Under the pieces are notes generated by a model. It worked only from the letters and a program-made list of their open reading frames with translations, did not search any database and was not told where the DNA came from. A DNA stretch of 64,000 bases. Source: a candidate division Hyd24-12 bacterium UBA5074 (lineage in GTDB: Bacteria; Fermentibacterota; Fermentibacteria; Fermentibacterales; Fermentibacteraceae). Within the stretch, counting starts at the first letter, position 1. Every line of letters begins with the position of its first letter. Made by a program: the position numbers and the translations under genes. Of this stretch, positions 8,985 to 34,250 are shown piece by piece. The DNA is taken from assembly GCA_002414865.1 (NCBI GenBank), contig DIAQ01000033.1:26958-90957 (forward strand), in the 5' to 3' direction.

Positions 8985-9796
8985 GCCGGCCCGGGGTCGC
9001 TGTCATCCAGTTCCCTGGCTCCAACTGCGAGCGTGAGACCGCCCGGGCCCTGGAATCGGCGGGTCTGTCCGCCACGATAATCAGGTGGAACGAGGGCGCC
9101 CGGCTGATCTCCTCCTGCCATGCATGCGTTCTCCCTGGTGGATTCTCGTTCCAGGACAGGATCAGGGCCGGCGCCGTCGCCGCCAAGGAGCCGGTGATGG
9201 AGGCCGTCGCCGCGATGGCGGATTCCGGAAGGCCCGTGCTGGGCATCTGCAACGGCGCCCAGATACTCGTCGAGAGCGGCCTGGTTCCGGGCTGGGCTCC
9301 GGGCTCCGTCGAGGCCGCGCTTGCCGCCAATGACATACCGGGCCGGAGCGGCTACCTCTCTGGATGGGCGTTCGTGCGTGTGGCCGAGGGTGCCTCCCGC
9401 TCACCCTGGCTTGCGGAGGCTCCGGGGGGAGCCATCCCGCTGCCGTTCGCCCACGCCGAGGGACGGTTCGAGTTCGCCCAGGGCACATCGCTGGATCACC
9501 TGATCTCGAGGGGCACGCCGGGACTCCTCTACTGCCGGCGCGACGGCTCGCCGGCCCTGGGCTTCCCCGCGAATCCCAACGGCTCCTCCTTCAGCCTGGC
9601 AGGCATCCTCAACCCGGGCGGGAACGTGCTCGCGATGATGCCTCATCCCGAGAGGGCGGCGATGCTCTGGCAGGTGCCGCCCGCGCTGGGTGGAAGCTGG
9701 GGAGGCCTCAGGAGGGCTTCCCGCCGTCTCGACGTCCCCGGTCCGGGAGCGGCCCTCTTCCTGAGCCTGGCGACCTTCCTGGGGGCAGGCAGCTGA
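8981..9796 (+). CDS. purQ: Phosphoribosylformylglycinamidine synthase glutaminase subunit PurQ
   Basis: MSRPGVAVIQFPGSNCERE is a class-I GATase start. Its ATG overlaps the purL stop (ATGA). Confidence 0.9.
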   Translation: MSRPGVAVIQFPGSNCERETARALESAGLSATIIRWNEGARLISSCHACVLPGGFSFQDRIRAGAVAAKEPVMEAVAAMADSGRPVLGICNGAQILVESGLVPGWAPGSVEAALAANDIPGRSGYLSGWAFVRVAEGASRSPWLAEAPGGAIPLPFAHAEGRFEFAQGTSLDHLISRGTPGLLYCRRDGSPALGFPANPNGSSFSLAGILNPGGNVLAMMPHPERAAMLWQVPPALGGSWGGLRRASRRLDVPGPGAALFLSLATFLGAGS

Positions 9797-25264: not shown

Positions 25265-25759
25265 ATGAGTTTCAGATTCGTCAGCAGCGCCGTCGATCCC
25301 ACTGGCTATCTGCCCTGCTGGTACGCGAAGGCGGGGAATGACTGCTCGCCTCCCGTCGGATGGGCCGGACTCCCTCCGGAGACCGGGAGCATCGCGGTGA
25401 CCTGCGAGAACCTCTCGGCCACACCCGAGGTTCTGCACTGGGTGCTGTACGATCTGGCACCCTATCCCGCAACCGTCTTCGGCGGGCTGCCGAAGCGCCC
25501 CGTGCTCGATTTCGGGTCGCACCAGGCTACGAACAGCTTCGGGGTCACGGGCTGGACGGGTCCCGGCGAGGACGGCGGCATCGTCACGCTCACGTTCACC
25601 GGATACGCCCTTCCCGGTCCCCTCGGGCTCCCCGGTGGCGCCCCCGCCGCGGAAGTGGCGGAGCTGGCGCGGGAGAATGCACTGGCGATCTGCAGCTTCA
25701 CCGGAACGTACTTCCCGAGAAGGCGCAGACCGGCATGCGCCTCCGGTGCAGGGGGATGA
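25265..25759 (+). CDS. PEBP/YbhB-YbcL family protein (divergent paralog)
   Basis: A DxSPPxxW-like N-terminal motif. The C-terminus parallels the downstream paralog. Confidence 0.6.
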   Translation: MSFRFVSSAVDPTGYLPCWYAKAGNDCSPPVGWAGLPPETGSIAVTCENLSATPEVLHWVLYDLAPYPATVFGGLPKRPVLDFGSHQATNSFGVTGWTGPGEDGGIVTLTFTGYALPGPLGLPGGAPAAEVAELARENALAICSFTGTYFPRRRRPACASGAGG

Positions 25760-25762
25760 GAA

Positions 25763-26230
25763 ATGGCCGCTCTGTTGCTCTTCAGCAGCGCGTTCAGTGA
25801 TGGCGGGCCGATCCCTGCACTCCATACCTGCGACGGGGCCGACATCTCGCCCCCGCTCTCCTGGCAGGCACAGGACAGCTCGATCGTCTCCTTTGCCCTC
25901 GTCTGCGAGGACCCCGACGCGCCTCTCACGACATGGACCCACTGGGTGATCTTCAACATCCCTGCCACGACCGATTCGCTCCCCCAGGGTCTTTCCACGG
26001 AGTCCCGCCTTCCCGACGGCTCCTGCCAGGGTCTCAACAGCTGGGGGCGCACCGGATACGGCGGACCCTGCCCTCCTTCCGGCACCCATCGCTACTTCTT
26101 CAGGCTCTACGCCCTCGATGCAATGCTCGATCTCCCGTCCCGCTCACGCCCCGCGGAAGTCGCGAGGGCCATGGACGGCCATGTCATCTACTCGGCGAGC
26201 CTGATGGGCACCTACTCCAGGCACAGGTAG
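25763..26230 (+). CDS. PEBP/YbhB-YbcL family protein
   Basis: GGPIPALHTCDGADISPPLSW, DPDAP and PCPPSGTHRYFFRLYALD are canonical. Confidence 0.85.
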   Translation: MAALLLFSSAFSDGGPIPALHTCDGADISPPLSWQAQDSSIVSFALVCEDPDAPLTTWTHWVIFNIPATTDSLPQGLSTESRLPDGSCQGLNSWGRTGYGGPCPPSGTHRYFFRLYALDAMLDLPSRSRPAEVARAMDGHVIYSASLMGTYSRHR

Positions 26231-26238
26231 GGCGCCCC

Positions 26239-27453
26239 GTGCGCCCCGAAGGCCTCCAGGGCAGCGTCCATTCACCGCTGTGGGCGCTGGACCCCGGCGT
26301 TGTGTTCCTCAACCACGGTTCGTTCGGGGCCTGCCCCCGCGAAGTGCTCGCCCACCGGAGGGCGCTCATCGAGGAACTCGAGTCCGAGCCCATGGACTTC
26401 CTCGTCAGGAGATACCCTGGCCTTCTCGGCGAGCAGATATCCTTCCTCGAGTCGTTCCTCGATGCCGAGCCCGGCTCGATCGTGCTCGTGCAGAACGCCA
26501 CGGTAGGCGTGAACACGATCCTCCGGAGCCTCCGGCTCGGACCCGGCGACGAAGTCCTGGTGACCGGCAGCGAGTACTTCTCGACGAGGAACTCCGCGCG
26601 CTCCGTCACCGAGGCCGCAGGAGCCTCGGTCAGGATGGTCGGGATCCCGTTCCCGCTCTCTGATCCCTCCGAGGCCTCGGATGCCATCCTGTCCGCCGTG
26701 ACCCCCCGGACGCGGCTCGCTGTGATCGACCACATCGCGAGCCCGACGGCCCTTGTATTCGACGTCGAACAGATAACGGCCGCGCTGACATCGAGGGGCA
26801 TCGAGGTGCTGGTCGACGGGGCGCACGGACCGGGCGGCGTCGATCTGAGCCTCCGCTCCGTAGGCGCGTCATACTACACCGGCAACTGCCACAAGTGGCT
26901 TTGCAGCCCGAAGGTGTGCGCTATACTCTATGTCAGGCCGGACAGGCAGGAGGGCGTCCACCCGCTCGCGATATCGCATGTCCGGGCCGACCTCGACACC
27001 CCTCTGTCGGATTTCCAGCTCGAGTTCATGTGGAACGGCACGCCCGACCCCACGGCCGCGCTGAGCGTCAGGAAGAGCGTGGAATACATGGCCTCGATCC
27101 TGCCGGGGGGCTGGACGGCCATAAGGGAGCGGAACAGGGCGTTGGCGACCGAGGCCGGCCGCAGGCTCTCGTCGGCTCTGGGGCTCCCGCCTCAGGCGCC
27201 CGACTCCATGACGGGGCCCATGGCGGCGGTCCTGCTGCCGTGGAGGCAGCCTCCCGAACCTCCCGGAGTTCTCTGGCTCGATCCGCTTCAGGTCTGGCTG
27301 AGGGAGGAGAGGGGCATAGAGGTGCCGGTCACCTGGACTCCCGGACCGCGGAGCAGGCTCCTGCGGCTCTCCGCTCAGCTCTACAACTCGCCGGAGGAGT
27401 ACGACTACCTGATCGAATCCGTCCTCGAGTGCCCATTCCTCGGAGCCGACTGA
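26239..27453 (+). CDS. Class V aminotransferase (cysteine desulfurase / IPNS-epimerase-like)
   Basis: GTG start after the PEBP stop. VFLNHGSFGACP N-terminus. PLP-fold family. Confidence 0.75.
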   Translation: MRPEGLQGSVHSPLWALDPGVVFLNHGSFGACPREVLAHRRALIEELESEPMDFLVRRYPGLLGEQISFLESFLDAEPGSIVLVQNATVGVNTILRSLRLGPGDEVLVTGSEYFSTRNSARSVTEAAGASVRMVGIPFPLSDPSEASDAILSAVTPRTRLAVIDHIASPTALVFDVEQITAALTSRGIEVLVDGAHGPGGVDLSLRSVGASYYTGNCHKWLCSPKVCAILYVRPDRQEGVHPLAISHVRADLDTPLSDFQLEFMWNGTPDPTAALSVRKSVEYMASILPGGWTAIRERNRALATEAGRRLSSALGLPPQAPDSMTGPMAAVLLPWRQPPEPPGVLWLDPLQVWLREERGIEVPVTWTPGPRSRLLRLSAQLYNSPEEYDYLIESVLECPFLGAD

Positions 27454-27460
27454 CCGGCGA

Positions 27461-28651
27461 TCAGGCTGCCGGCTCGAACCAGCCCCGCGTCCGCAGGCAT
27501 ATCTTCACGAGCATCAGCATCACGGGCACTTCGATCAGCACACCGACCACGGTCGCCAGCGCCGCTCCCGACGAGAGGCCGAACAGCATCGTGGCCGTGG
27601 CGATGGCCACCTCGAAATGGTTCGAGGCCCCGATCATCGCCGCCGGCGCCGCATCCTCGTAGCGGAGTTTCAGGAGCCTCGCGAGCCAGTACCCGAGCCA
27701 GAAGATCAGGTTGGTCTGGATGAAGAGGGGAATGGCGATCCAGAGGATCGTGAGGGGATTCGAGAGGATCGTCCCGCCCTTGAAACTGAACAGGAGGACC
27801 AGGGTCGTGAGAAGGGCGACGATCGTGATGGGCGTGAGGACATGGAGGAACTTCTCCCTGAACCACCGCTCGCCCCTTGCCCTGACGATCCACCTCCTGG
27901 AGAGGTATCCCGCCACCAGGGGCAATGCCACGTAGATTGCGATGGACAGCGCCAGTGCCTGCCATGGGACCGGCAGCCTCCCGACGCCCAGCAGGAATCC
28001 GCCGAGCAGTCCGTAGAGAACCAACATCGACAGAGAGTTGATGGCGACCATCACGAGCGTCAGCCCGTCGTTGCCCCTGGCGAGATAGCTCCAGACAAGG
28101 ACCATGGCCGTGCATGGCGCTATCCCCAGCAGGATGCATCCTGCGAAATAGCTGCGCCACAGTGGTACCTGCAGCATCTTGATCCCGTCGGAGAGGACCA
28201 CCGTGCCCGCCCCGTGTGTCGCTCCGACCGGCAGGTCCAGGCCGAAAGGCATCTTCACCAGGTCCGTCGCGTCGGTTCCGATGAACGCGCGGAAGAGAAC
28301 CCCCAGAAACAGCAGGGCGATGGCGTACATCGTGAAGGGCTTGATCGCCCAGTTCACGAATAGAGTCAGCCATACGGGCCTGCCGCTCCTGCCGGCCCTG
28401 ACCACCGAAGCGAAGTCGATCTTCACCATGATCGGGTACATCATCAGGAAGAGGCAGATGGCGATCGGGATGGAAACCACCGGCGCGCCGTTCACGAAGA
28501 TCGAGAATCCATCCAGCCTGGTCGCCAGAGCGGGCGCGAGCCTGCCGAGTATGATCCCCGCGACGATGCACAAGCCAACCCACACGGTCAGATACCGCTC
28601 GAACACGTTCGACATCCTGCGGTCTGCAGCCGGGCACGAGGTTCCGCTCAT
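27461..28651 (-). CDS. arsB: ACR3 family arsenite/antimonite efflux transporter
   Basis: FERYLTVWV...[14 protein letters not shown] and [12 protein letters not shown] are ACR3 signatures. The start could instead be the internal Met at MSNVFERY. Confidence 0.85.
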
Positions 28652-28727
28652 CGCCCCTCCCTGTCCACGATCGCCTCAATCCCTGCGCAGCTCGCGAATC
28701 CATTTCGCGCAGGAGTTGGAAGGCGCT

Positions 28728-29435
28728 TCATATGGCTTTTTGCAGCATATAGATACCTGCCAGGATGACGAGGGCTCCGGCGGCGCGCCGCAGGATGGCG
28801 AGAGCTCGGGACTTCTCGTTCCAGCTCAGCAGTCTGCAGGCTGTCCCGGAGAAGGTGCCTGCGGCGACGATCACGCCACAATGGCCGATGGCGAAGCAGC
28901 CCATCATGGCTGCGGAGAGGACTGGCCGAACGGCCTGTGCGGCCAGGACCACCCCGAGCAGCGGGGCGATGAAGGCAAAGGTGCAGGGCCCCGCCGCAGC
29001 CCCGAAGACGAGGCCATAAAGGGCGGAACCCAGGAGCCCCGACCTTCTCCGTCCCGGCATCGCAACTCGTGGCGCCGGCAGGGTGAAGACCTCCATCAGG
29101 TTCAGACCGAACAGCATCAGCAGGACGGCAAGAATGATGCCCCCGGGTTTCCCCATGTCTCCCGCAATGCGCCCCGCGCTTAACGTGATGACTCCCAGGG
29201 CCGAAACGGCAACCAGGACCCCGGCGGCGAATGACGCCGAGATTCGGAACGCCTTTCTCGTGGAGGTCTCGGGATCCTTCGAGATGTAGCCCACGAGCAG
29301 GGGGATGCTGGCGAGATGGCATGGGCTGAGAAGAATGCTCAGCATTCCCCAGACCATGGCGGCGGCAAGCCCGACAACGGGGGAGGATCCTTCGACCGCT
29401 CTCCCCAGGCCGGTCAGGAATTCACTCACCGGCAT
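28728..29435 (-). CDS. ccdA: Cytochrome c biogenesis protein CcdA / DsbD-core transmembrane thiol-disulfide electron transporter
   Basis: LSPC motif (SILLSPCHLASIPLLVGYI) and the second Cys region (GAAAGPCTFAF). Six TM helices. Confidence 0.8.
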   Translation of the reverse strand: MPVSEFLTGLGRAVEGSSPVVGLAAAMVWGMLSILLSPCHLASIPLLVGYISKDPETSTRKAFRISASFAAGVLVAVSALGVITLSAGRIAGDMGKPGGIILAVLLMLFGLNLMEVFTLPAPRVAMPGRRRSGLLGSALYGLVFGAAAGPCTFAFIAPLLGVVLAAQAVRPVLSAAMMGCFAIGHCGVIVAAGTFSGTACRLLSWNEKSRALAILRRAAGALVILAGIYMLQKAI

Positions 29436-29838
29436 CCTCCGGTATCACGTCGTATCCCAGCTCGGTCCACTTCGCGACCATGTCCTCGGCCGATACGACG
29501 CCCTCGTGCCTCCAGAGCTCGGTTCCGGTCTCCGAGAGGAAGATCTGCGTCGGGATCACCCTGATGCCGTAGGTGCGCGCTGCCGCCTGGTTCTCGTTCA
29601 CGTCGACGAAAGAGATCTCGAGGGTCCCCTGCGTCATGTCCTCGAGACGGTCGAGCTCGGTCATCATGGTCTGGCACGGTATGCACATCTGCGAACCGAG
29701 ATCGAGGACCTTCGGCAATGCCGTCAATGTCGTGTCCGGAGCTTCCAGGCGCTCGGTTCCCGTGTCACGGGTCAGGACTGCTGCGGCTGCAAGCCCGCCG
29801 ACTACCAGGACTATCGCTGCCTTGGTCAATGTCTTCAT
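29422..29838 (-). CDS. Membrane-anchored thioredoxin-fold protein (TlpA/ResA-like), CxxC = CIPC
   Basis: N-terminal TM anchor. Thioredoxin fold with CIPC. Overlaps ccdA by 14 nt. Confidence 0.75.
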   Translation of the reverse strand: MKTLTKAAIVLVVGGLAAAAVLTRDTGTERLEAPDTTLTALPKVLDLGSQMCIPCQTMMTELDRLEDMTQGTLEISFVDVNENQAAARTYGIRVIPTQIFLSETGTELWRHEGVVSAEDMVAKWTELGYDVIPEDAGE

Positions 29839-29872
29839 CGGAGTGAATCCGTCCTTCGGAATCTGATGTTGT

Positions 29873-30112
29873 CTACTTCCCGGTCAGTATGGCCGCTATC
29901 TCATCCACTCCCGGGACTCTGCCCATGACCCTGACCTCTCCATCCACAACGAGAGCCGGAGTCATCATCACGCCGAACTTCATGATCTCCCTGATGTCCG
30001 TAACCTTCTCGATCGACACGCCCTGGAGCTCCGCCTTCTCGACTGCCTTGTGGACGTGCTCCATGAGCTTGATGCATTTCGGGCAGCCCGTTCCCAGCAC
30101 TTGAATAGTCAT
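29873..30112 (-). CDS. Small thioredoxin-family protein (redox-active disulfide protein 2-like), CxxC = CPKC
   Basis: MTIQVLGTGCPKCIK. This 79-aa family commonly pairs with COG0701 permeases in ars-type operons. Confidence 0.8.
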   Translation of the reverse strand: MTIQVLGTGCPKCIKLMEHVHKAVEKAELQGVSIEKVTDIREIMKFGVMMTPALVVDGEVRVMGRVPGVDEIAAILTGK

Positions 30113-30132
30113 CTCTTACCTCCAGTTCCGCA

Positions 30133-31428
30133 TCAGCTCGCGAAGGTGCCGAAGATGAACCCGGTGAAAGTTGCGAGAACGACCACGAGAGAAACGAAGA
30201 CCACCGTTTTCTTCGCACCCATGATGCTCCTGAGGACGAGCATGCTGGGCAGGGACAGTGCCGGGCCGGCAAGGAGAAGGGCCAGGGCCGGGCCTTTGCC
30301 CATCCCGGAACCGAGCAGTCCCTGAAGGATGGGTATCTCCGTGAGCGTGGCGAAGTACATCAGCGCGCCGGAAACGGAGGCGAAAAGATTCGCGAGCAGC
30401 GAGTTGCCGCCGACGGCTCCAGCGATCCATGTGGATGGGATCATCGCCTCATGGCCGGGCCTGCCCAGGAGGAACCCGGCGACGAGCACGCCTCCCAGGA
30501 GCAAGGGAATGATCTGACGGGCGAAGCCGACCGTCGCGTCGAACCACTCCCGGAGCTGGGGGCCACCTGTGGCGGAGAGGGCGCCCACAGCGATGACACC
30601 AGCCGAGAACGCGTAGATCGGATGCTCCGGCCACAGCAGCGCAAGGGCAGTGACGGGAACGGAACCCAGAAGCACTCTCCTCCATCCGACCTTGAACTCG
30701 AGCACGAGGATCACGGCCAGGAGAACGGAGAATGCCGATGTGATGTACCACTTGATCTGAGCTACGAAGGCCCAGAAGGGAGCCGCCCCTTCAGGGCTGC
30801 CCCAGTTGGCGAAGACGAGGATTCCGGCCATGGAGGCGAAGTACAGAGCTGTTTTCCAGAGTGGTCGCTGAGGAGCCCCCGGCGCCGTCGCCATGCTGGT
30901 TCGCGTCTTCTCTGACGAAGCCTTGCGGAAGAACAGGCTCATCAGGAGGCCGATGACAACGCTGAAGGCTACTGCGCCGACGGCGCGGGCGACTCCGATC
31001 TCCAGCCCGAGCACCCTCGCCGTCATCACGATGGCCAGGATATTGATGGCGGGGCCGCTGTATAGAAATGCCGTCGCTGGCCCGAGCCCTGCTCCCATCG
31101 TATAGATGCCGGCGAAGATGGGCAGCACCGTGCACGAGCAGACGGCCAGAACGGTCCCGGATACCGAAGCGACTCCGTACGCCTTGAATCTGTTCGCCCC
31201 CGGTCCGAGGTATCGCAGGACGGAGTCCTTGTTCAGGAAGACGCCGATGGCGCCCGCGATGAACAGGGCGGGGACCAGGCAGAGGATCACATGAAGGCGG
31301 GCGTATTCGTTGAGCATGAAGAGGGATTCCCGGACTGCACCCTCGAACCGCGGCGAACCGACCGGAAGGAACCAGGCTGCGAGAAGAGCGGCAGCCAGGA
31401 GGAGAAGCGTCTTCGTCGTCGAAGTCAC
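30133..31428 (-). CDS. COG0701/DUF318 permease (ArsP-like), CSC motif
   Basis: Polytopic membrane protein with the LAVCSCTVLPIF motif. GTG start overlaps the arsR stop (GTGA). The ATG at 31515 would overlap arsR by 90 nt. Confidence 0.75.
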   Translation of the reverse strand: MTSTTKTLLLLAAALLAAWFLPVGSPRFEGAVRESLFMLNEYARLHVILCLVPALFIAGAIGVFLNKDSVLRYLGPGANRFKAYGVASVSGTVLAVCSCTVLPIFAGIYTMGAGLGPATAFLYSGPAINILAIVMTARVLGLEIGVARAVGAVAFSVVIGLLMSLFFRKASSEKTRTSMATAPGAPQRPLWKTALYFASMAGILVFANWGSPEGAAPFWAFVAQIKWYITSAFSVLLAVILVLEFKVGWRRVLLGSVPVTALALLWPEHPIYAFSAGVIAVGALSATGGPQLREWFDATVGFARQIIPLLLGGVLVAGFLLGRPGHEAMIPSTWIAGAVGGNSLLANLFASVSGALMYFATLTEIPILQGLLGSGMGKGPALALLLAGPALSLPSMLVLRSIMGAKKTVVFVSLVVVLATFTGFIFGTFAS

Positions 31429-31754
31429 TGCTTGTTCTCCTTCGGGCAGGCCGGGAGCCTGCAGGCCCCTCCCGCGATCACGTTCTCCACGCACTGGAAG
31501 AAATCGAGGACGCATCTCACCGCGAGGGTGTAGTACACCTTCGTGCCCTCCTTGCGGTCCGCCGCGAGGCCCGCGCTTCTAAGGACGGAGAGGTGTCTCG
31601 ACACCGTAGAGATGTCCAGGCCGACCTCTGCGGAGAGGTCGCCCACGGTCCTCTCACCTGTCGAGAGCGCATCCACGAGATGCAGGCGGGCGGGATTGGC
31701 GAGGGCGGAGAGTATCGATGCCCTTCTTCGATAGATCTCGTTGTTCGACGACAT
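31425..31754 (-). CDS. arsR: ArsR/SmtB family transcriptional regulator
   Basis: HTH block LSALANPARLHLVDALSTGERTVGDLSAEVGLDISTVSRHL. C-terminal Cys pairs. GGAGGAG ribosome-binding site. Confidence 0.85.
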   Translation of the reverse strand: MSSNNEIYRRRASILSALANPARLHLVDALSTGERTVGDLSAEVGLDISTVSRHLSVLRSAGLAADRKEGTKVYYTLAVRCVLDFFQCVENVIAGGACRLPACPKENKQ

Positions 31755-31895
31755 GGTTCTCCTCCTTGCAAACTTATGCAAATATACAAATATTCGTTCC
31801 TGGATCAACAGGAGCTCGATCTTGGCAATCGCGGACATTTCCGCGATACTGATCGAAACCGCGTGGAAAAGCAGCCTTGCATGCGAGGAGGCAAG
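31755..31895. promoter_or_regulatory. AT-rich divergent intergenic region (putative arsR operator / bidirectional promoters)
   Basis: The only AT-rich stretch for kilobases. Direct repeat CAAATAT-A-CAAATAT and palindromic TTGCAA, between divergent arsR and the selenoprotein candidate. Confidence 0.45.
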
Positions 31896-32537
31896 ATGGG
31901 GAAGATTCTGGCTGTTCTGCTGCTGGCCGTGCTGCCCGTCACCGCAGCCACCATAACGGTCGGCAGCCCTCAGATATCGTCGAGCGATCCCTGGTGCGGC
32001 TCCTGAAGCCCCCAGATGCGCTACCAGGCGGTAGTGCTGGGCGAAGAGATGCAGGGAGCCTGTGACATCCTCTCGGTGGCATGGCAGCGGACCACTTCGG
32101 GGAACGACCAGGGCCATTACTATGACGTCAACATCTACATGGGCCTCTGTGCATCGGACCAGCTCGGCTCGGTCTTCGAAGACAACTGGGTGCCGGGCAC
32201 CAAGACGCTGGTATTCTCCACCGACCAGCTCGACCTGTCCGCCGGCGTCAACGAATGGGAGCCGATCACGCTCGATGCGCCATACTGGTACGGCGGTCAG
32301 CAGAACCTGCTCCTCGAGGTCGAGTGGGGCTCCGCCAACACCTCCTACAGTTTCTACACATGGAAATGGGATACCGGGGCCGTGCGATCGATCAAGGCCG
32401 TCGACCTCGCCGCGCCGTCGGGCATAATGTCGACCCAGATGTCCGAGCTCCAGTTCACGGCAGACCTCGACCTGGAGGTCGACACCTTCGGCTGCATCAA
32501 GACCCTGTTCATCGGCGGAGAGGAGCGGGGGGAATGA
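31896..32537 (+). CDS. Candidate secreted selenoprotein 1 (signal peptide; C-G-S-U with in-frame TGA at 32004-32006)
   Basis: ATG sits 5 nt after GAGGAGG. Signal peptide MGKILAVLLLAVLPVTAA. The upstream and downstream ORFs share one frame and are split only by TGA. The downstream region is homologous to paralog 2 from the first codon after TGA. A hairpin begins 11 nt after TGA. Confidence 0.6.
32018..32037 (+). promoter_or_regulatory. Candidate bacterial SECIS-like hairpin (8-bp stem, AGGC loop) 11 nt downstream of TGA
   Basis: GCGCTACC-AGGC-GGTAGTGC. Same position and stem as in paralog 2. Confidence 0.45.
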
Positions 32538-33172
32538 AGATCCTGCCGCTGCCCCTGCTGGCCCTTGCATTCCTCGCGCCGGCCGCGACGATAACCATCG
32601 GGCAGGAGGAGCTCTCGGGCGGCGAGCCGCTCTGCTGCTCCTGAGTCGAGTCCCTGCACTACCAGGTGGTGGTGCTCGATTCGGAGATCGGGGGAGCGTT
32701 CCAGATCCAGGAGCTGTCACTCGTGCGGCACAGCTCGGGTTCTACGCCCGCCCCGACGAACTTCAGCGATTTCCAGATCTGGTTCGGACTGACCGATTCC
32801 GACCAGCTCTCGTCGATGTTCGAGGACAATTTCATCCCCGGCACACGCACGCTCGTGTTCGACCGCGACTCGCTCTACCTTTCCGCGAGTCCGGGCGAGC
32901 AGATCGACTTCGAGCTGGACCAGCCCTTCTGGTACGGAGGAACGCACAACCTCGTGGTCGAGATCCTCTGGTCGGACGGCGAGGAGATCGGCTCCGAGTG
33001 CGTGTACACCTGGCAGTGGAACACGGGCGCCATGAGGTGCGCGTCAGGCCCGTACACGGCGTCCTCGGGCAGCCTCACCAGCATGATCCCGATGCTGGTC
33101 CTCACAGGAGTGCAGGCGCTCGACCAGACCACTTTCGCGGCGGTGAAGTCGTCCTTTTCCGGGAGCCCCTGA
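32534..33172 (+). CDS. Candidate secreted selenoprotein 2 (signal peptide; C-C-S-U with in-frame TGA at 32642-32644)
   Basis: ATG overlaps the gene 1 stop (ATGA). Signal peptide MKILPLPLLALAFLAPAA. Single frame interrupted only by TGA. About 40% identity to paralog 1 across the TGA. Hairpin 11 nt after TGA. Confidence 0.6.
32656..32675 (+). promoter_or_regulatory. Candidate bacterial SECIS-like hairpin (8-bp stem, AGGU loop) 11 nt downstream of TGA
   Basis: GCACTACC-AGGT-GGTGGTGC. Confidence 0.45.
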
Positions 33173-33288
33173 GCGGCGCCGGACGGGTTCCGAGCGATTT
33201 CCGGGATATCGATGCACATGACCCGGCAGGGATCCGGGGTCGCAGTGTTGCCTCCTCCGGGCGGCGCTTGGCAATATTCGCGTGCGGT

Positions 33289-33365
33289 GCGCCCGTAGCT
33301 CAGCTGGATAGAGCAGCGGACTTCTAATCCGCAGGTCTCGCGTTCGAGTCGCGACGGGCGTACCA
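33289..33365 (+). tRNA. tRNA-Arg (anticodon TCT)
   Basis: Cloverleaf GCGCCCG-TA-GCTC...CTTCTAA...TTCGAGT...CGGGCGT-A-CCA. CCA is encoded. G1-U72 wobble. Confidence 0.85.
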
Positions 33366-33371
33366 CTCTCC

Positions 33372-33399
33372 GGAAGGCCTTCCCGGCAGGCGGCCTTCC
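33372..33399 (+). terminator. GC-rich hairpin downstream of tRNA-Arg (GGAAGGCC...GGCCTTCC)
   Basis: 8-bp perfect stem with a 12-nt loop. No U-tract. Confidence 0.4.
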
Positions 33400-33478
33400 G
33401 TTCCACCATCTCCAGGCCCGCCCTCCCGTGGGCCGGCACCGACTCAAGGCTCCCGCACGGACCCGGGCACGATACGGA

Positions 33479-33506
33479 GGAAGGCCGCCCTAACGGACGG
33501 CCTTCC
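33479..33506 (-). terminator. GC-rich hairpin downstream of tRNA-Lys (GGAAGGCCG...CGGCCTTCC)
   Basis: 9-bp stem with a 10-nt loop. It shares the stem sequence of the hairpin at 33372. Confidence 0.4.
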
Positions 33507-33513
33507 TGCACGA

Positions 33514-33589
33514 TGGTACGCCCCCCGGGAATCGAACCCGGAACCCACGGATTAAGAGTCCGTTGCTCTACCAATTGAGCTAGGGGCGC
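33514..33589 (-). tRNA. tRNA-Lys (anticodon CTT)
   Basis: Reverse complement gives GCGCCCC-TA-GCTC...CTCTTAA...TTCGATT...GGGGCGT-A-CCA. Confidence 0.85.
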
Positions 33590-33597
33590 AAAAATCC

Positions 33598-33674
33598 TGG
33601 GGTGGGAGACCGGACTCGAACCGGCGACCACTTGATCCACAGTCAAGGGCTCTACCAACTGAACTACTCCCACC
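33598..33674 (-). tRNA. tRNA-His (anticodon GTG, with G-1)
   Basis: Reverse complement gives G-GTGGGAG-TA-GTTC...CTGTGGA...TTCGAGT...CTCCCAC-C-CCA. G-1 and C73 are typical of tRNA-His. Confidence 0.85.
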
Positions 33675-33707
33675 AGAGCAGGCCGCATATATAGACGAGC
33701 CCCTCGA

Positions 33708-33757
33708 TGCGTCAAGCAATACAAGCTCTTGACGCAGCTTCCGCGGCAGGATACGCT
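33708..33757 (+). promoter_or_regulatory. Inverted repeat TGCGTCAAG-N11-CTTGACGCA overlapping a TTGACG-17 nt-TACGCT promoter-like element upstream of nrdR
   Basis: Perfect 9-bp arms at 33708-33716 and 33728-33736. TTGACG at 33729-33734 and TACGCT at 33752-33757. Confidence 0.35.
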
Positions 33758-33791
33758 TCGTCGACCAGACGCGAACGGGGGGCCCTTTCCG

Positions 33792-34250
33792 ATGAGATGC
33801 CCGCGCTGCGGGAGCATGGACGACAGGGTTGTCGATTCGAGGAGCGCCAAGGAGGGCAGGGCCACCCGGCGCCGTCGCGAATGTCTCGACTGCGGCTACA
33901 GGTACACCACCTACGAATTCATCGAGACCAGCTATCCCGGAGTCGTCAAGAAGGACGGGAGGCGCGAGCCTTTCGATACCGCCAAGCTGGAGAAGGGCAT
34001 CGCCAGGGCCTGCGAGAAGCGCCCGGTCTCCGCACAGGAGATCAAGGACGTCGTCGAGAAGCTCACTGCGCGGATCACGGAGGAATTCCCCGATGAGGTC
34101 AGCTCGGGTTTCATAGGAGAATGCGTGATGGAGACTCTTCGCGGGATCGACGAAGTCGCCTACGTAAGGTTCGCGAGCGTCTACAGGCAGTTCCGGGATG
34201 TCGCTCAGTTCAAGGAGGAGCTGGAGAGGCTGCTGAAGAACCAGAAGTGA
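33792..34250 (+). CDS. nrdR: Transcriptional repressor NrdR
   Basis: [17 protein letters not shown] zinc ribbon plus an ATP-cone. Confidence 0.92.

Follow-up and report, generated by a model that had tools for sequence, protein, structure and literature searches.

A 64,000-nucleotide stretch of contig DIAQ01000033.1 (hereafter, the window), from the uncultured candidate division Hyd24-12 bacterium UBA5074 of the lineage “Candidatus Fermentibacteria,” carries at positions 27461 to 33172 what we consider, on balance, to be a locus for resistance to arsenic or organoarsenicals under the control of ArsR, in which two divergent units share one AT-rich control region. The first unit is an ars operon of a known, widespread type that also occurs outside Fermentibacteria; the second, which is specific to Fermentibacteria, is a tandem pair of genes, selA and selB, for exported proteins with a Cys-x-x-Sec motif (Sec, selenocysteine) on a predicted jelly-roll domain. 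The link to selenoproteins is the new part, and comparative evidence supports an ArsR-linked pairing of the operon with this new secreted family. Below, L-numbers denote compared loci or contigs and P-numbers denote homologous proteins. The gene identities and the operon structure, computed directly, and the predicted control elements are as follows.

27461 to 28651, minus strand: final operon gene, encoding the arsenite efflux transporter ACR3 (378.5 bits for the TIGR00832 equivalog, whose cut-off is 282.8; PF01758)
28728 to 29429, minus strand: CcdA-like DsbD_TM membrane thiol-disulfide electron transporter, with invariant Cys residues in SPCHL and GPCTF
29422 to 29838, minus strand: thioredoxin of 138 amino acids (aa) with a CIPC motif and, at its N terminus, a hydrophobic anchor or signal (PF00085, 6e-9; PF13098, 3e-7)
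29873 to 30112, minus strand: cytoplasmic Trx_3/MTH895-ArsE thioredoxin-like protein of 79 aa with a CPKC motif (TIGR00412, 104.1 bits against 62; PF13192, 2e-25)
30133 to 31428, minus strand: ArsP_1 permease whose VCSC motif holds two vicinal Cys residues and whose GTG start shares GTGA with the arsR stop (PF03773, 2e-70, 237.6 bits against 32.3)
31425 to 31754, minus strand: ArsR/SmtB repressor, first gene of the operon (PF01022, 2.9e-14; NF033788, 80.7 bits against a cut-off of 55)
31763 to 31784, no strand: putative ArsR operator TCCTTG-N10-CAAATA, with two mismatches to TATTTG-N10-CAAATA, overlapping the ribosome-binding site and −10 region of arsR
31766 to 31794, plus strand: weaker alternative promoter candidate of selA, TTGCAA-17-AATATT, which shares sequence with the ArsR box, an overlap also seen in L008 and L011
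31781 to 31808, minus strand: promoter-like site of arsR, TTGATC-16-TATATT
31822 to 31850, plus strand: best-scoring promoter-like site of selA, TTGGCA-17-GATACT
31896 to 32537, plus strand: selA, encoding a signal peptide, ATITVGS...PWCGS-U, and then a jelly-roll domain (Sec codon at 32004 to 32006, in CGSU)
32018 to 32037, plus strand: hairpin of selA resembling a selenocysteine insertion sequence (SECIS), GCGCUACC-AGGC-GGUAGUGC, 11 nt past the UGA
32534 to 33172, plus strand: selB, a paralogue about 40% identical, with EPLCCS-U (Sec codon at 32642 to 32644, in CCSU)
32656 to 32675, plus strand: SECIS-like hairpin of selB, GCACUACC-AGGU-GGUGGUGC

All eight genes, six of ars type on the minus strand and two C-x-x-U genes (U, Sec) on the plus strand, lie where an initial annotation of this DNA had placed them, and its proposal that the six form one ArsR-type operon agrees with their tight junctions and with the same gene order in L055, L056, L135, and many other loci. 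Read from the promoter, the order is arsR, ArsP permease, Trx_3/ArsE, anchored thioredoxin, CcdA, and ACR3, with successive junctions of −4 nt (the GTGA overlap of arsR and arsP), 20, 34, −8, and 76 nt; these lengths come from gene calls on L136 (JGI 3300000030 contig WSSedB1B_c000076), which is 100% identical to 14.2 kb of the window. The selA and selB genes overlap by ATGA.

The pairing of the ars operon with the C-x-x-U genes, first remarked on in the initial annotation, is real and evolutionarily conserved: 9 of the 14 distinct tandem selA-selB loci that we detected, belonging to several lineages, abut arsR or ars genes, and a direct comparison of these loci yields five arrangements. (i) In the window, the pair and the complete operon are transcribed away from each other. 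(ii) In L006, L010, L012, and L139, the pair converges on the 3′ end of the operon. (iii) In L031 and L074, arsR, selA, and selB are co-directional and divergent from acr3-trx-ccdA. (iv) L137/L138 has a lone divergent arsR orthologue (65% identical), behind which lie an ACR3 remnant and an IS3-type transposase. (v) L141/L142 also has a divergent arsR orthologue (59% identical), and a unit of arsR2, an ArsM-like methyltransferase, and a rhodanese converges on selB. Three separate lineages, represented by the window, L137/L138, and L141/L142, thus have an arsR divergent to the pair. The remaining 5 tandem loci (L007, L008, L009, L011, and L032) have no ars gene in the available flank, which for L011 ends with the contig about 300 nt upstream of selA; at three of these unlinked loci (L008, L009, and L011), the region upstream of selA contains a match to the ArsR operator described below.

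Several of these loci have surroundings worth recording. Behind arsR, L137 (8092 to 9774) and L138 (16 to 1665) carry the IS3-type transposase (HTH_Tnp_1 with rve) and what is left of the ACR3 N terminus, 24 aa; an insertion sequence (IS) element seems to have cut short an ars operon here. In L141 (1762 to 2894), resolvase and RadC/JAB genes adjoin the arsR-selAB unit, hinting at a mobile context. In L008, from Hyd24-12 bacterium UBA6080, a transfer-messenger RNA (tmRNA) gene at 9271 to 9624 (Rfam RF00023, 147.7 bits), unreported by ARAGORN, stands directly upstream of selA-selB.

The second line of evidence is the control region itself. The initial annotation had described the region between the operon and the C-x-x-U genes as the only AT-rich intergenic stretch nearby, and this statement extends to the whole 64 kb: the intergenic region (31755 to 31895) has a GC content of 0.489, and the lowest-GC 141-nt stretch in the window begins at 31713 (GC content, 0.447). 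A palindrome with the exact core TATTTG-N10-CAAATA lies upstream of arsR in L006, L010, and L012, and the same exact core is found about 50 to 60 nt upstream of arsR in 8 operons from outside Fermentibacteria, with one mismatch in 4 more. Because the core recurs before arsR in these foreign operons, it is the predicted operator of this ArsR subfamily. Across 825 kb of selenoprotein loci, exact matches to TRTTTG-N10-CAAAYA, a count made directly, occur only before arsR (in L006, L010, and L012) and before selA (in L011 and L008), the latter two being loci whose selA-selB pair is unlinked to ars genes.

We then scanned 732 kb of nonredundant Fermentibacteria DNA with a position weight matrix built from arsR-proximal sites only. 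The best sites outside the training set lie upstream of selA in L011 (17.2 bits) and L009 (16.9 bits), followed in third place by the intergenic region of the window (14.8 bits); the arsR/acr3 intergenic region of L031 scores 14.7 bits, and the region upstream of selA in L008 scores 11.6 bits. L137 scores 16.3 bits. Unrelated sites of at least 11.6 bits number about 3 per 732 kb, and by a rough estimate from that rate, the probability that four regions of 200 nt would contain three such sites is far below 1e-5, even when intergenic DNA alone is counted. In L008 and L011, the ArsR box overlaps the sole promoter-like site upstream of selA. Since the arsR-selAB linkage is conserved and the operator recurs upstream of pairs that lie away from ars genes, shared regulation, in which the same ArsR controls both the ars operon and selA-selB, is likely.

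Inside the spacer of the best-scoring selA promoter candidate, at 31828 to 31847, lies a perfect 8-4-8 palindrome, ATCGCGGA-CATT-TCCGCGAT; it bears no relation to the ArsR box and might serve as another operator.

A number of observations weigh against an ArsR-controlled locus of this composition. About 30 single-copy paralogues of the selenoprotein family are known, none of them ars linked, and the matrix detected no ArsR box near any of them in the 732 kb; likewise, it found no box upstream of selA in L006, L010, L012, L007, or L032. The operator of the window departs from the core at two positions, and the best-scoring selA promoter (31822 to 31850) is 38 nt away from the ArsR box and does not overlap it. 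On one chromosome, the operon (L135) and the pair (L007) are about 700 kb apart, and in a survey of operons of this kind (described below), the genes of the proposed redox relay occur without SelA or SelB in 79 of 80 loci.

The cysteine pattern of ArsR fits a thiol-based metalloid sensor. When 30 ArsRs from such operons are aligned, those of this operon type have in common a C-x6-C pair (C81 and C88), and those of Fermentibacteria possess a C-terminal C-x4/5-C (C-x4-C in the window) and lack the CVC motif of helix alpha-3.

Decoding of UGA as selenocysteine in selA and selB is well supported, because a conserved, covarying hairpin lies 11 nt past the UGA and because homologues with CxxC exist. 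Each protein consists of a signal peptide, an A-T-I-T-V/I-G strand, the C-x-x-U motif, and about 170 more residues in frame past the UGA. The decoding signals, again computed directly, are consistent across the family: UGA holds the same position in 55 distinct sequences (the two window genes and 53 related ones), with coding conservation on both sides, and 23 of 23 database homologues of SelA are open reading frames of 152 to 173 aa that begin right after the UGA. The hairpin has an 8-bp stem and an AGGY loop and starts 11 nt past the UGA (14 nt in a few sequences). In 40 distinct sequences, 93.8% of its cells are paired, two-sided changes affect 4 of the 8 pairs, and its covariation score was reached by 0 of 500 shuffles; one compensatory change pairs a synonymous Tyr substitution (UAC to UAU) with Val to Ile or Met. 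Cys replaces Sec in L040 (PFCGDC), in P0169, P0175, P0193, and P0209 (all CxxC), and in P0172 (SNGC). UGA is also the plain stop codon of arsR, selA, and selB. An Rfam E-value scan of positions 27000 to 34000 returned three tRNAs only and no SECIS family, and none of the 3 tRNAs in the 64-kb window is a tRNA-Sec.

The motif around Sec varies among paralogues, from GCU (L033, L043, and L046) and SCU (L037) to IGIGU (selB of L031, L032, and L074) and SNGU (L042), such that Cys directly adjoins Sec in some of them and is missing within three residues of it in others. Not every member of the family, therefore, has the C-x-x-U spacing.

Relatives of the two selenoproteins fall into 43 loci, with several paralogous loci per genome, and are confined to metagenome-assembled genomes of Candidatus Fermentibacteria/Hyd24-12 (Fermentibacter, Aegiribacteria, and Sabulitectum) and a few unclassified ones. 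Neither SelA nor SelB matches any Pfam or NCBIfam model, and a search of the literature on Fermentibacteria with selenocysteine and on Hyd24-12 with arsenic yielded nothing relevant; they appear to constitute an undescribed Sec family. AlphaFold2 models of the post-Sec domain of SelA (predicted local distance difference test score, 87.8) and of a natural full-length Cys homologue indicate that SelA and SelB have a jelly-roll fold and not that of thioredoxin. Fold searches returned generic jelly-roll, carbohydrate-binding module, and PHR matches alone, giving no functional lead. SelA-type proteins have a third, nearly invariant Cys in an MGLC motif, which SelB lacks.

The domain (32007 to 32534 and 32645 to 33169 in the window; proteins P0148 to P0292) belongs to a large family without annotation, of which a profile search at an E value of ≤1e-3 found 2493 representatives; these include Sec forms and Cys forms of 201 to 209 aa. 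Proteins of about 560 aa contain three matched stretches, and two that we inspected begin with lipoprotein-like signals; proteins of 1 to 6.5 thousand aa, presumably surface proteins, contain up to 14.

In the working that we propose for the locus, As(III) or a trivalent organoarsenical would bind ArsR and release it from its palindromic operator (core TATTTG-N10-CAAATA), after which ACR3 and ArsP would export arsenicals from the cytoplasm. The cytoplasmic Trx_3 protein, CcdA, and the anchored thioredoxin, which is presumed to be periplasmic, would carry reducing equivalents across the membrane, and SelA and SelB, in the periplasm, would act through their Cys/Sec pair, binding or reducing arsenicals or else thiols damaged by arsenic. 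Induction by arsenic, the way in which electrons flow, and what SelA and SelB do chemically are inferred. Taken further, the scheme describes a new periplasmic selenoprotein family whose Cys-x-x-Sec on a jelly-roll scaffold captures or reduces arsenicals, is switched by ArsR, and is recharged by the relay, making it the first selenium-dependent extracytoplasmic arm of arsenic resistance; this extended version we offer tentatively, as a possibility that may well prove wrong.

The composition of the relay required some revision of the initial annotation. The protein encoded at 28728 to 29429 has no Pfam match, even at E values of up to 10, and sequence searches of the PDB with CcdA profiles of 5 and 19 sequences found none either; we call it CcdA-like because P0033, which is 76% identical to it, matches PF02683 (DsbD_TM) at 40 bits against a cut-off of 27.1. 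Over 4000 homologues were retrieved at an E value of ≤1e-30, and those named by their source are CcdA or cytochrome c-type biogenesis proteins. The anchored thioredoxin had been described as TlpA-like, a term that is valid in the functional sense only, because the protein is a classical PF00085 thioredoxin whose matches in Pfam to an E value of 10 (Thioredoxin, Thioredoxin_2, Thioredoxin_9, and Thioredoxin_8) do not include Redoxin or AhpC-TSA. The small protein described as an 80-aa CxxC thioredoxin is indeed a CxxC thioredoxin (CPKC; TIGR00412) and has 79 residues.

To place the relay in context, we surveyed 80 metagenome loci recovered with a CcdA profile, mostly 42 to 49% identical. Next to ccdA, these loci contain a thioredoxin gene (73 of 80), trx3 (50), arsP (43), acr3 (38), arsR (29), a DGC-domain gene (28), an LMWPc-rhodanese gene (ArsC-like; 20), an ArsM-like methyltransferase gene (7), and, in a single case (L074), selA/selB. 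Since 79 of these 80 loci have no SelA or SelB, the relay does not need them. The suggestion in the initial annotation that CcdA and the thioredoxin keep the exported selenoproteins reduced is plausible and is weaker than was supposed, because the same module is widespread without selA/B and because close relatives have no adjoining pair; the operon of L055, for instance, lacks a selAB pair within about 800 nt upstream of arsR, and arsR-selAB also occurs in L137/L138 and L141/L142 without relay genes alongside. In its favor, L031 and L074 keep acr3-trx-ccdA beside arsR-selAB, having lost arsP and trx3. SelA and SelB are probably lineage-specific end-clients of the relay.

Other proteins occupy the equivalent position elsewhere. 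In operons from outside Fermentibacteria, the periplasmic thioredoxin is fused to a following Cys-rich domain, about 290 aa long, that matches the alkylmercury lyase MerB (PF03243, 65 bits against 27), with such fusions at 1402 to 2340 of L070, 8102 to 9010 of L082, 9052 to 9970 of L123, 8060 to 8980 of L124, and 1950 to 2870 of L134. Between the DGC and thioredoxin genes of L059 (about 9000 to 9460) and L063 (about 1440 to 1900) lies a gene for an ArsF-family lipoprotein (NF040494, 103.6 bits against 60). The variety of periplasmic thiol proteins at this point of the operon fits a relay with variable end-clients.

Against the clientship that we favor stands the reading that SelA and SelB belong to the ArsR regulon and yet function without the Trx_3-CcdA-thioredoxin relay, perhaps by taking up As(III) in the periplasm as a Cys/Sec sponge or chaperone, while the relay would serve other targets, such as the thiols of ArsP and ACR3 or generic periplasmic proteins. 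The 79 relay loci without SelA/B speak for it, as do L137/L138 and L141/L142, which keep arsR and selAB with no thioredoxin or ccdA gene alongside and leave arsR as the sole constant neighbor of the pair; moreover, in SelA-type proteins, the MGLC Cys could supply the third ligand of an As(III) site. SelB, however, has no third Cys, CxxU and CxxC motifs are typically redox active and would require a periplasmic reductant, and the retention of acr3-trx-ccdA beside arsR-selAB in L031 and L074, from which arsP and trx3 are gone, hints at a preferred association. We regard independence from the relay as rather unlikely.

It is improbable that the adjacency is incidental, with selA-selB encoding a general secreted redox or surface protein that is unrelated to arsenic and merely shares an intergenic region with the operon. 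Single-copy paralogues do sit in unrelated contexts (e.g., beside rpmB and a PTS EIIA gene in L004), the five tandem loci named above have no ars gene in their available flanks (about 300 nt in the case of L011), and the domain also builds the giant, presumed surface proteins; but 9 of 14 tandem loci are ars linked in five arrangements, and the ArsR operator recurs at three unlinked loci at a frequency far beyond that of unrelated sites.

The initial annotation also considered the locus, lying between housekeeping genes and a tRNA cluster, to be typical of insertions. The checks of synteny and composition that it proposed came out divided: location does vary among relatives, and no deviation in GC content at third codon positions (GC3) is present. 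The operon and the pair lie at different, nonsyntenic sites in L055, L135, L006/L010/L012, L137, and L141, and the flanks of the window share no genes with those of L006, L010, L012, L055, or L074 besides the ars and sel genes. These comparisons indicate that operon and pair move on an evolutionary scale, to sites that are sometimes near mobile-element genes, tmRNA, or tRNA. There is, in contrast, no sign of a recent island: the GC3 of the block (0.76 to 0.88) is inside the range of other window genes (0.74 to 0.90), its eight genes include no integrase or recombinase (as the initial annotation had correctly noted for integrases), and no repeats of ≥14 nt of the tRNA-Arg, tRNA-Lys, and tRNA-His sequences (33289 to 33673) were detected. 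That the 6-kb block arrived recently, as a genomic island beside the tRNA cluster, is very improbable, despite the nonsyntenic flanks of the six-gene operon in L055, L135, and L006/L010/L012, the proximity of the pair in relatives to an IS3-type transposase (L137/L138), a resolvase (L141), tmRNA (L008), and tRNA-Met (L031), and the slightly lower bulk GC content of the block (0.59 to 0.65 versus 0.65 to 0.69), since its GC3 is ordinary, it holds neither tRNA-sequence repeats nor an integrase, and it lies 5′ of tRNA-Arg, not at a tRNA 3′ end. A tRNA-targeted island was rejected on the same grounds of repeats and GC3.

The absence of ArsC, also pointed out in the initial annotation, stands for the low-molecular-weight phosphatase (LMWP) type, of which a tblastn search of the whole window found no homologue (other ArsC types were not searched), and does not stand as a basic trait of the system; it is a secondary loss, for relatives keep an LMWPc-rhodanese gene, which, with an ArsM-like methyltransferase gene, lies downstream of ACR3. 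Since a longer operon, with DGC before ACR3 and LMWPc-rhodanese and methyltransferase genes after it, is found in the Fermentibacteria loci L012/L049, L052, and L139, the operon in the window is a trimmed version.

The module arsR-arsP-trx3-trx-ccdA-acr3 was already described in 2010 (PMC2963123), with the same gene set as in the window (ArsR, ArsP permease, Trx_3, a second thioredoxin, CcdA, and ACR3), and its gene order recurs in dozens of metagenome loci. In that proposal, the redox trio serves a cytoplasmic ArsC (PMC2963123). The operon in the window differs in having neither a DGC gene nor ArsC (of the LMWP type searched) and in being paired with secreted selenoproteins, which are unmentioned there. 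Operon C of Pseudodesulfovibrio mercurii ND132, arsR5-arsP-arsE(PF13192)-DGC, is induced by As(III) and As(V) according to transcriptome sequencing (RNA-seq) (bioRxiv 10.1101/2022.10.17.512643). Both operons have the ArsR-ArsP-Trx_3 core, and that of P. mercurii is without CcdA, periplasmic thioredoxin, ACR3, and selenoproteins, all of which are present in the window. The ArsEFG organoarsenical system combines reduction of nitro-aromatic arsenicals with efflux. It resembles the present locus in that the 79-aa protein belongs to the MTH895/ArsE family (TIGR00412) and that ArsF-family lipoproteins occur in the homologous operons L059 and L063, but no homologue of ArsF or ArsG was seen in the window.

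Among selenoprotein systems, the Tso/SAO operons encode an ArsR-type regulator (TsoR) and a DsbD-like selenoprotein (TsoB), and Sec has been proposed to act there as a metal or metalloid ligand (review PMC13188914). Both combine, at one locus, several selenoprotein genes with a regulator of the ArsR/SmtB family and a membrane component of DsbD type; however, no model in NCBIfam or Pfam fits SelA or SelB, and the CcdA of the window has no Sec. Membership in the Tso operons was rejected (TsoB, 36 bits against a cut-off of 805; TsoR, 35.2 against 115). The pathways of CcdA/DsbD with TlpA, ResA, or CcmG likewise combine, in neighboring genes, a two-Cys DsbD_TM protein with an anchored CxxC partner of thioredoxin fold, but the partner in the window is of PF00085 and not of the Redoxin/AhpC-TSA type typical of TlpA and ResA, and its context is arsenic resistance rather than maturation of cytochrome c or CuA. 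We rejected membership of the window thioredoxin in the TlpA/ResA family, for lack of a Redoxin/AhpC-TSA match.

The role of CcdA, thioredoxin, and Trx_3 in ars operons was conjecture in the 2010 paper (PMC2963123), and we found no later test of it in the literature searched. The present locus, together with the MerB-like and ArsF-like partners elsewhere, suggests the testable idea that ars operons may have an extracytoplasmic thiol arm with lineage-specific end proteins. Fermentibacteria inhabit anaerobic sediments and digesters, and if Sec were an arsenic ligand or redox center, it would provide a molecular handle on the interplay of arsenic and selenium in these habitats. A set that is easily cloned for work in vitro would consist of ArsR and its operator, the thioredoxin domain, and SelA together with the Cys homologues that occur in nature.

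At the far end of the operon, the ACR3 stop is 7 nt from the stop of a convergent class-V aminotransferase gene (26239 to 27453, plus strand), and no terminator-like site was seen in the spacer between the two stops (27453 to 27461). Just past the aminotransferase gene, the window contains two tandem genes of the PEBP/PBP family (PF01161), at 25265 to 25759 and 25763 to 26230.

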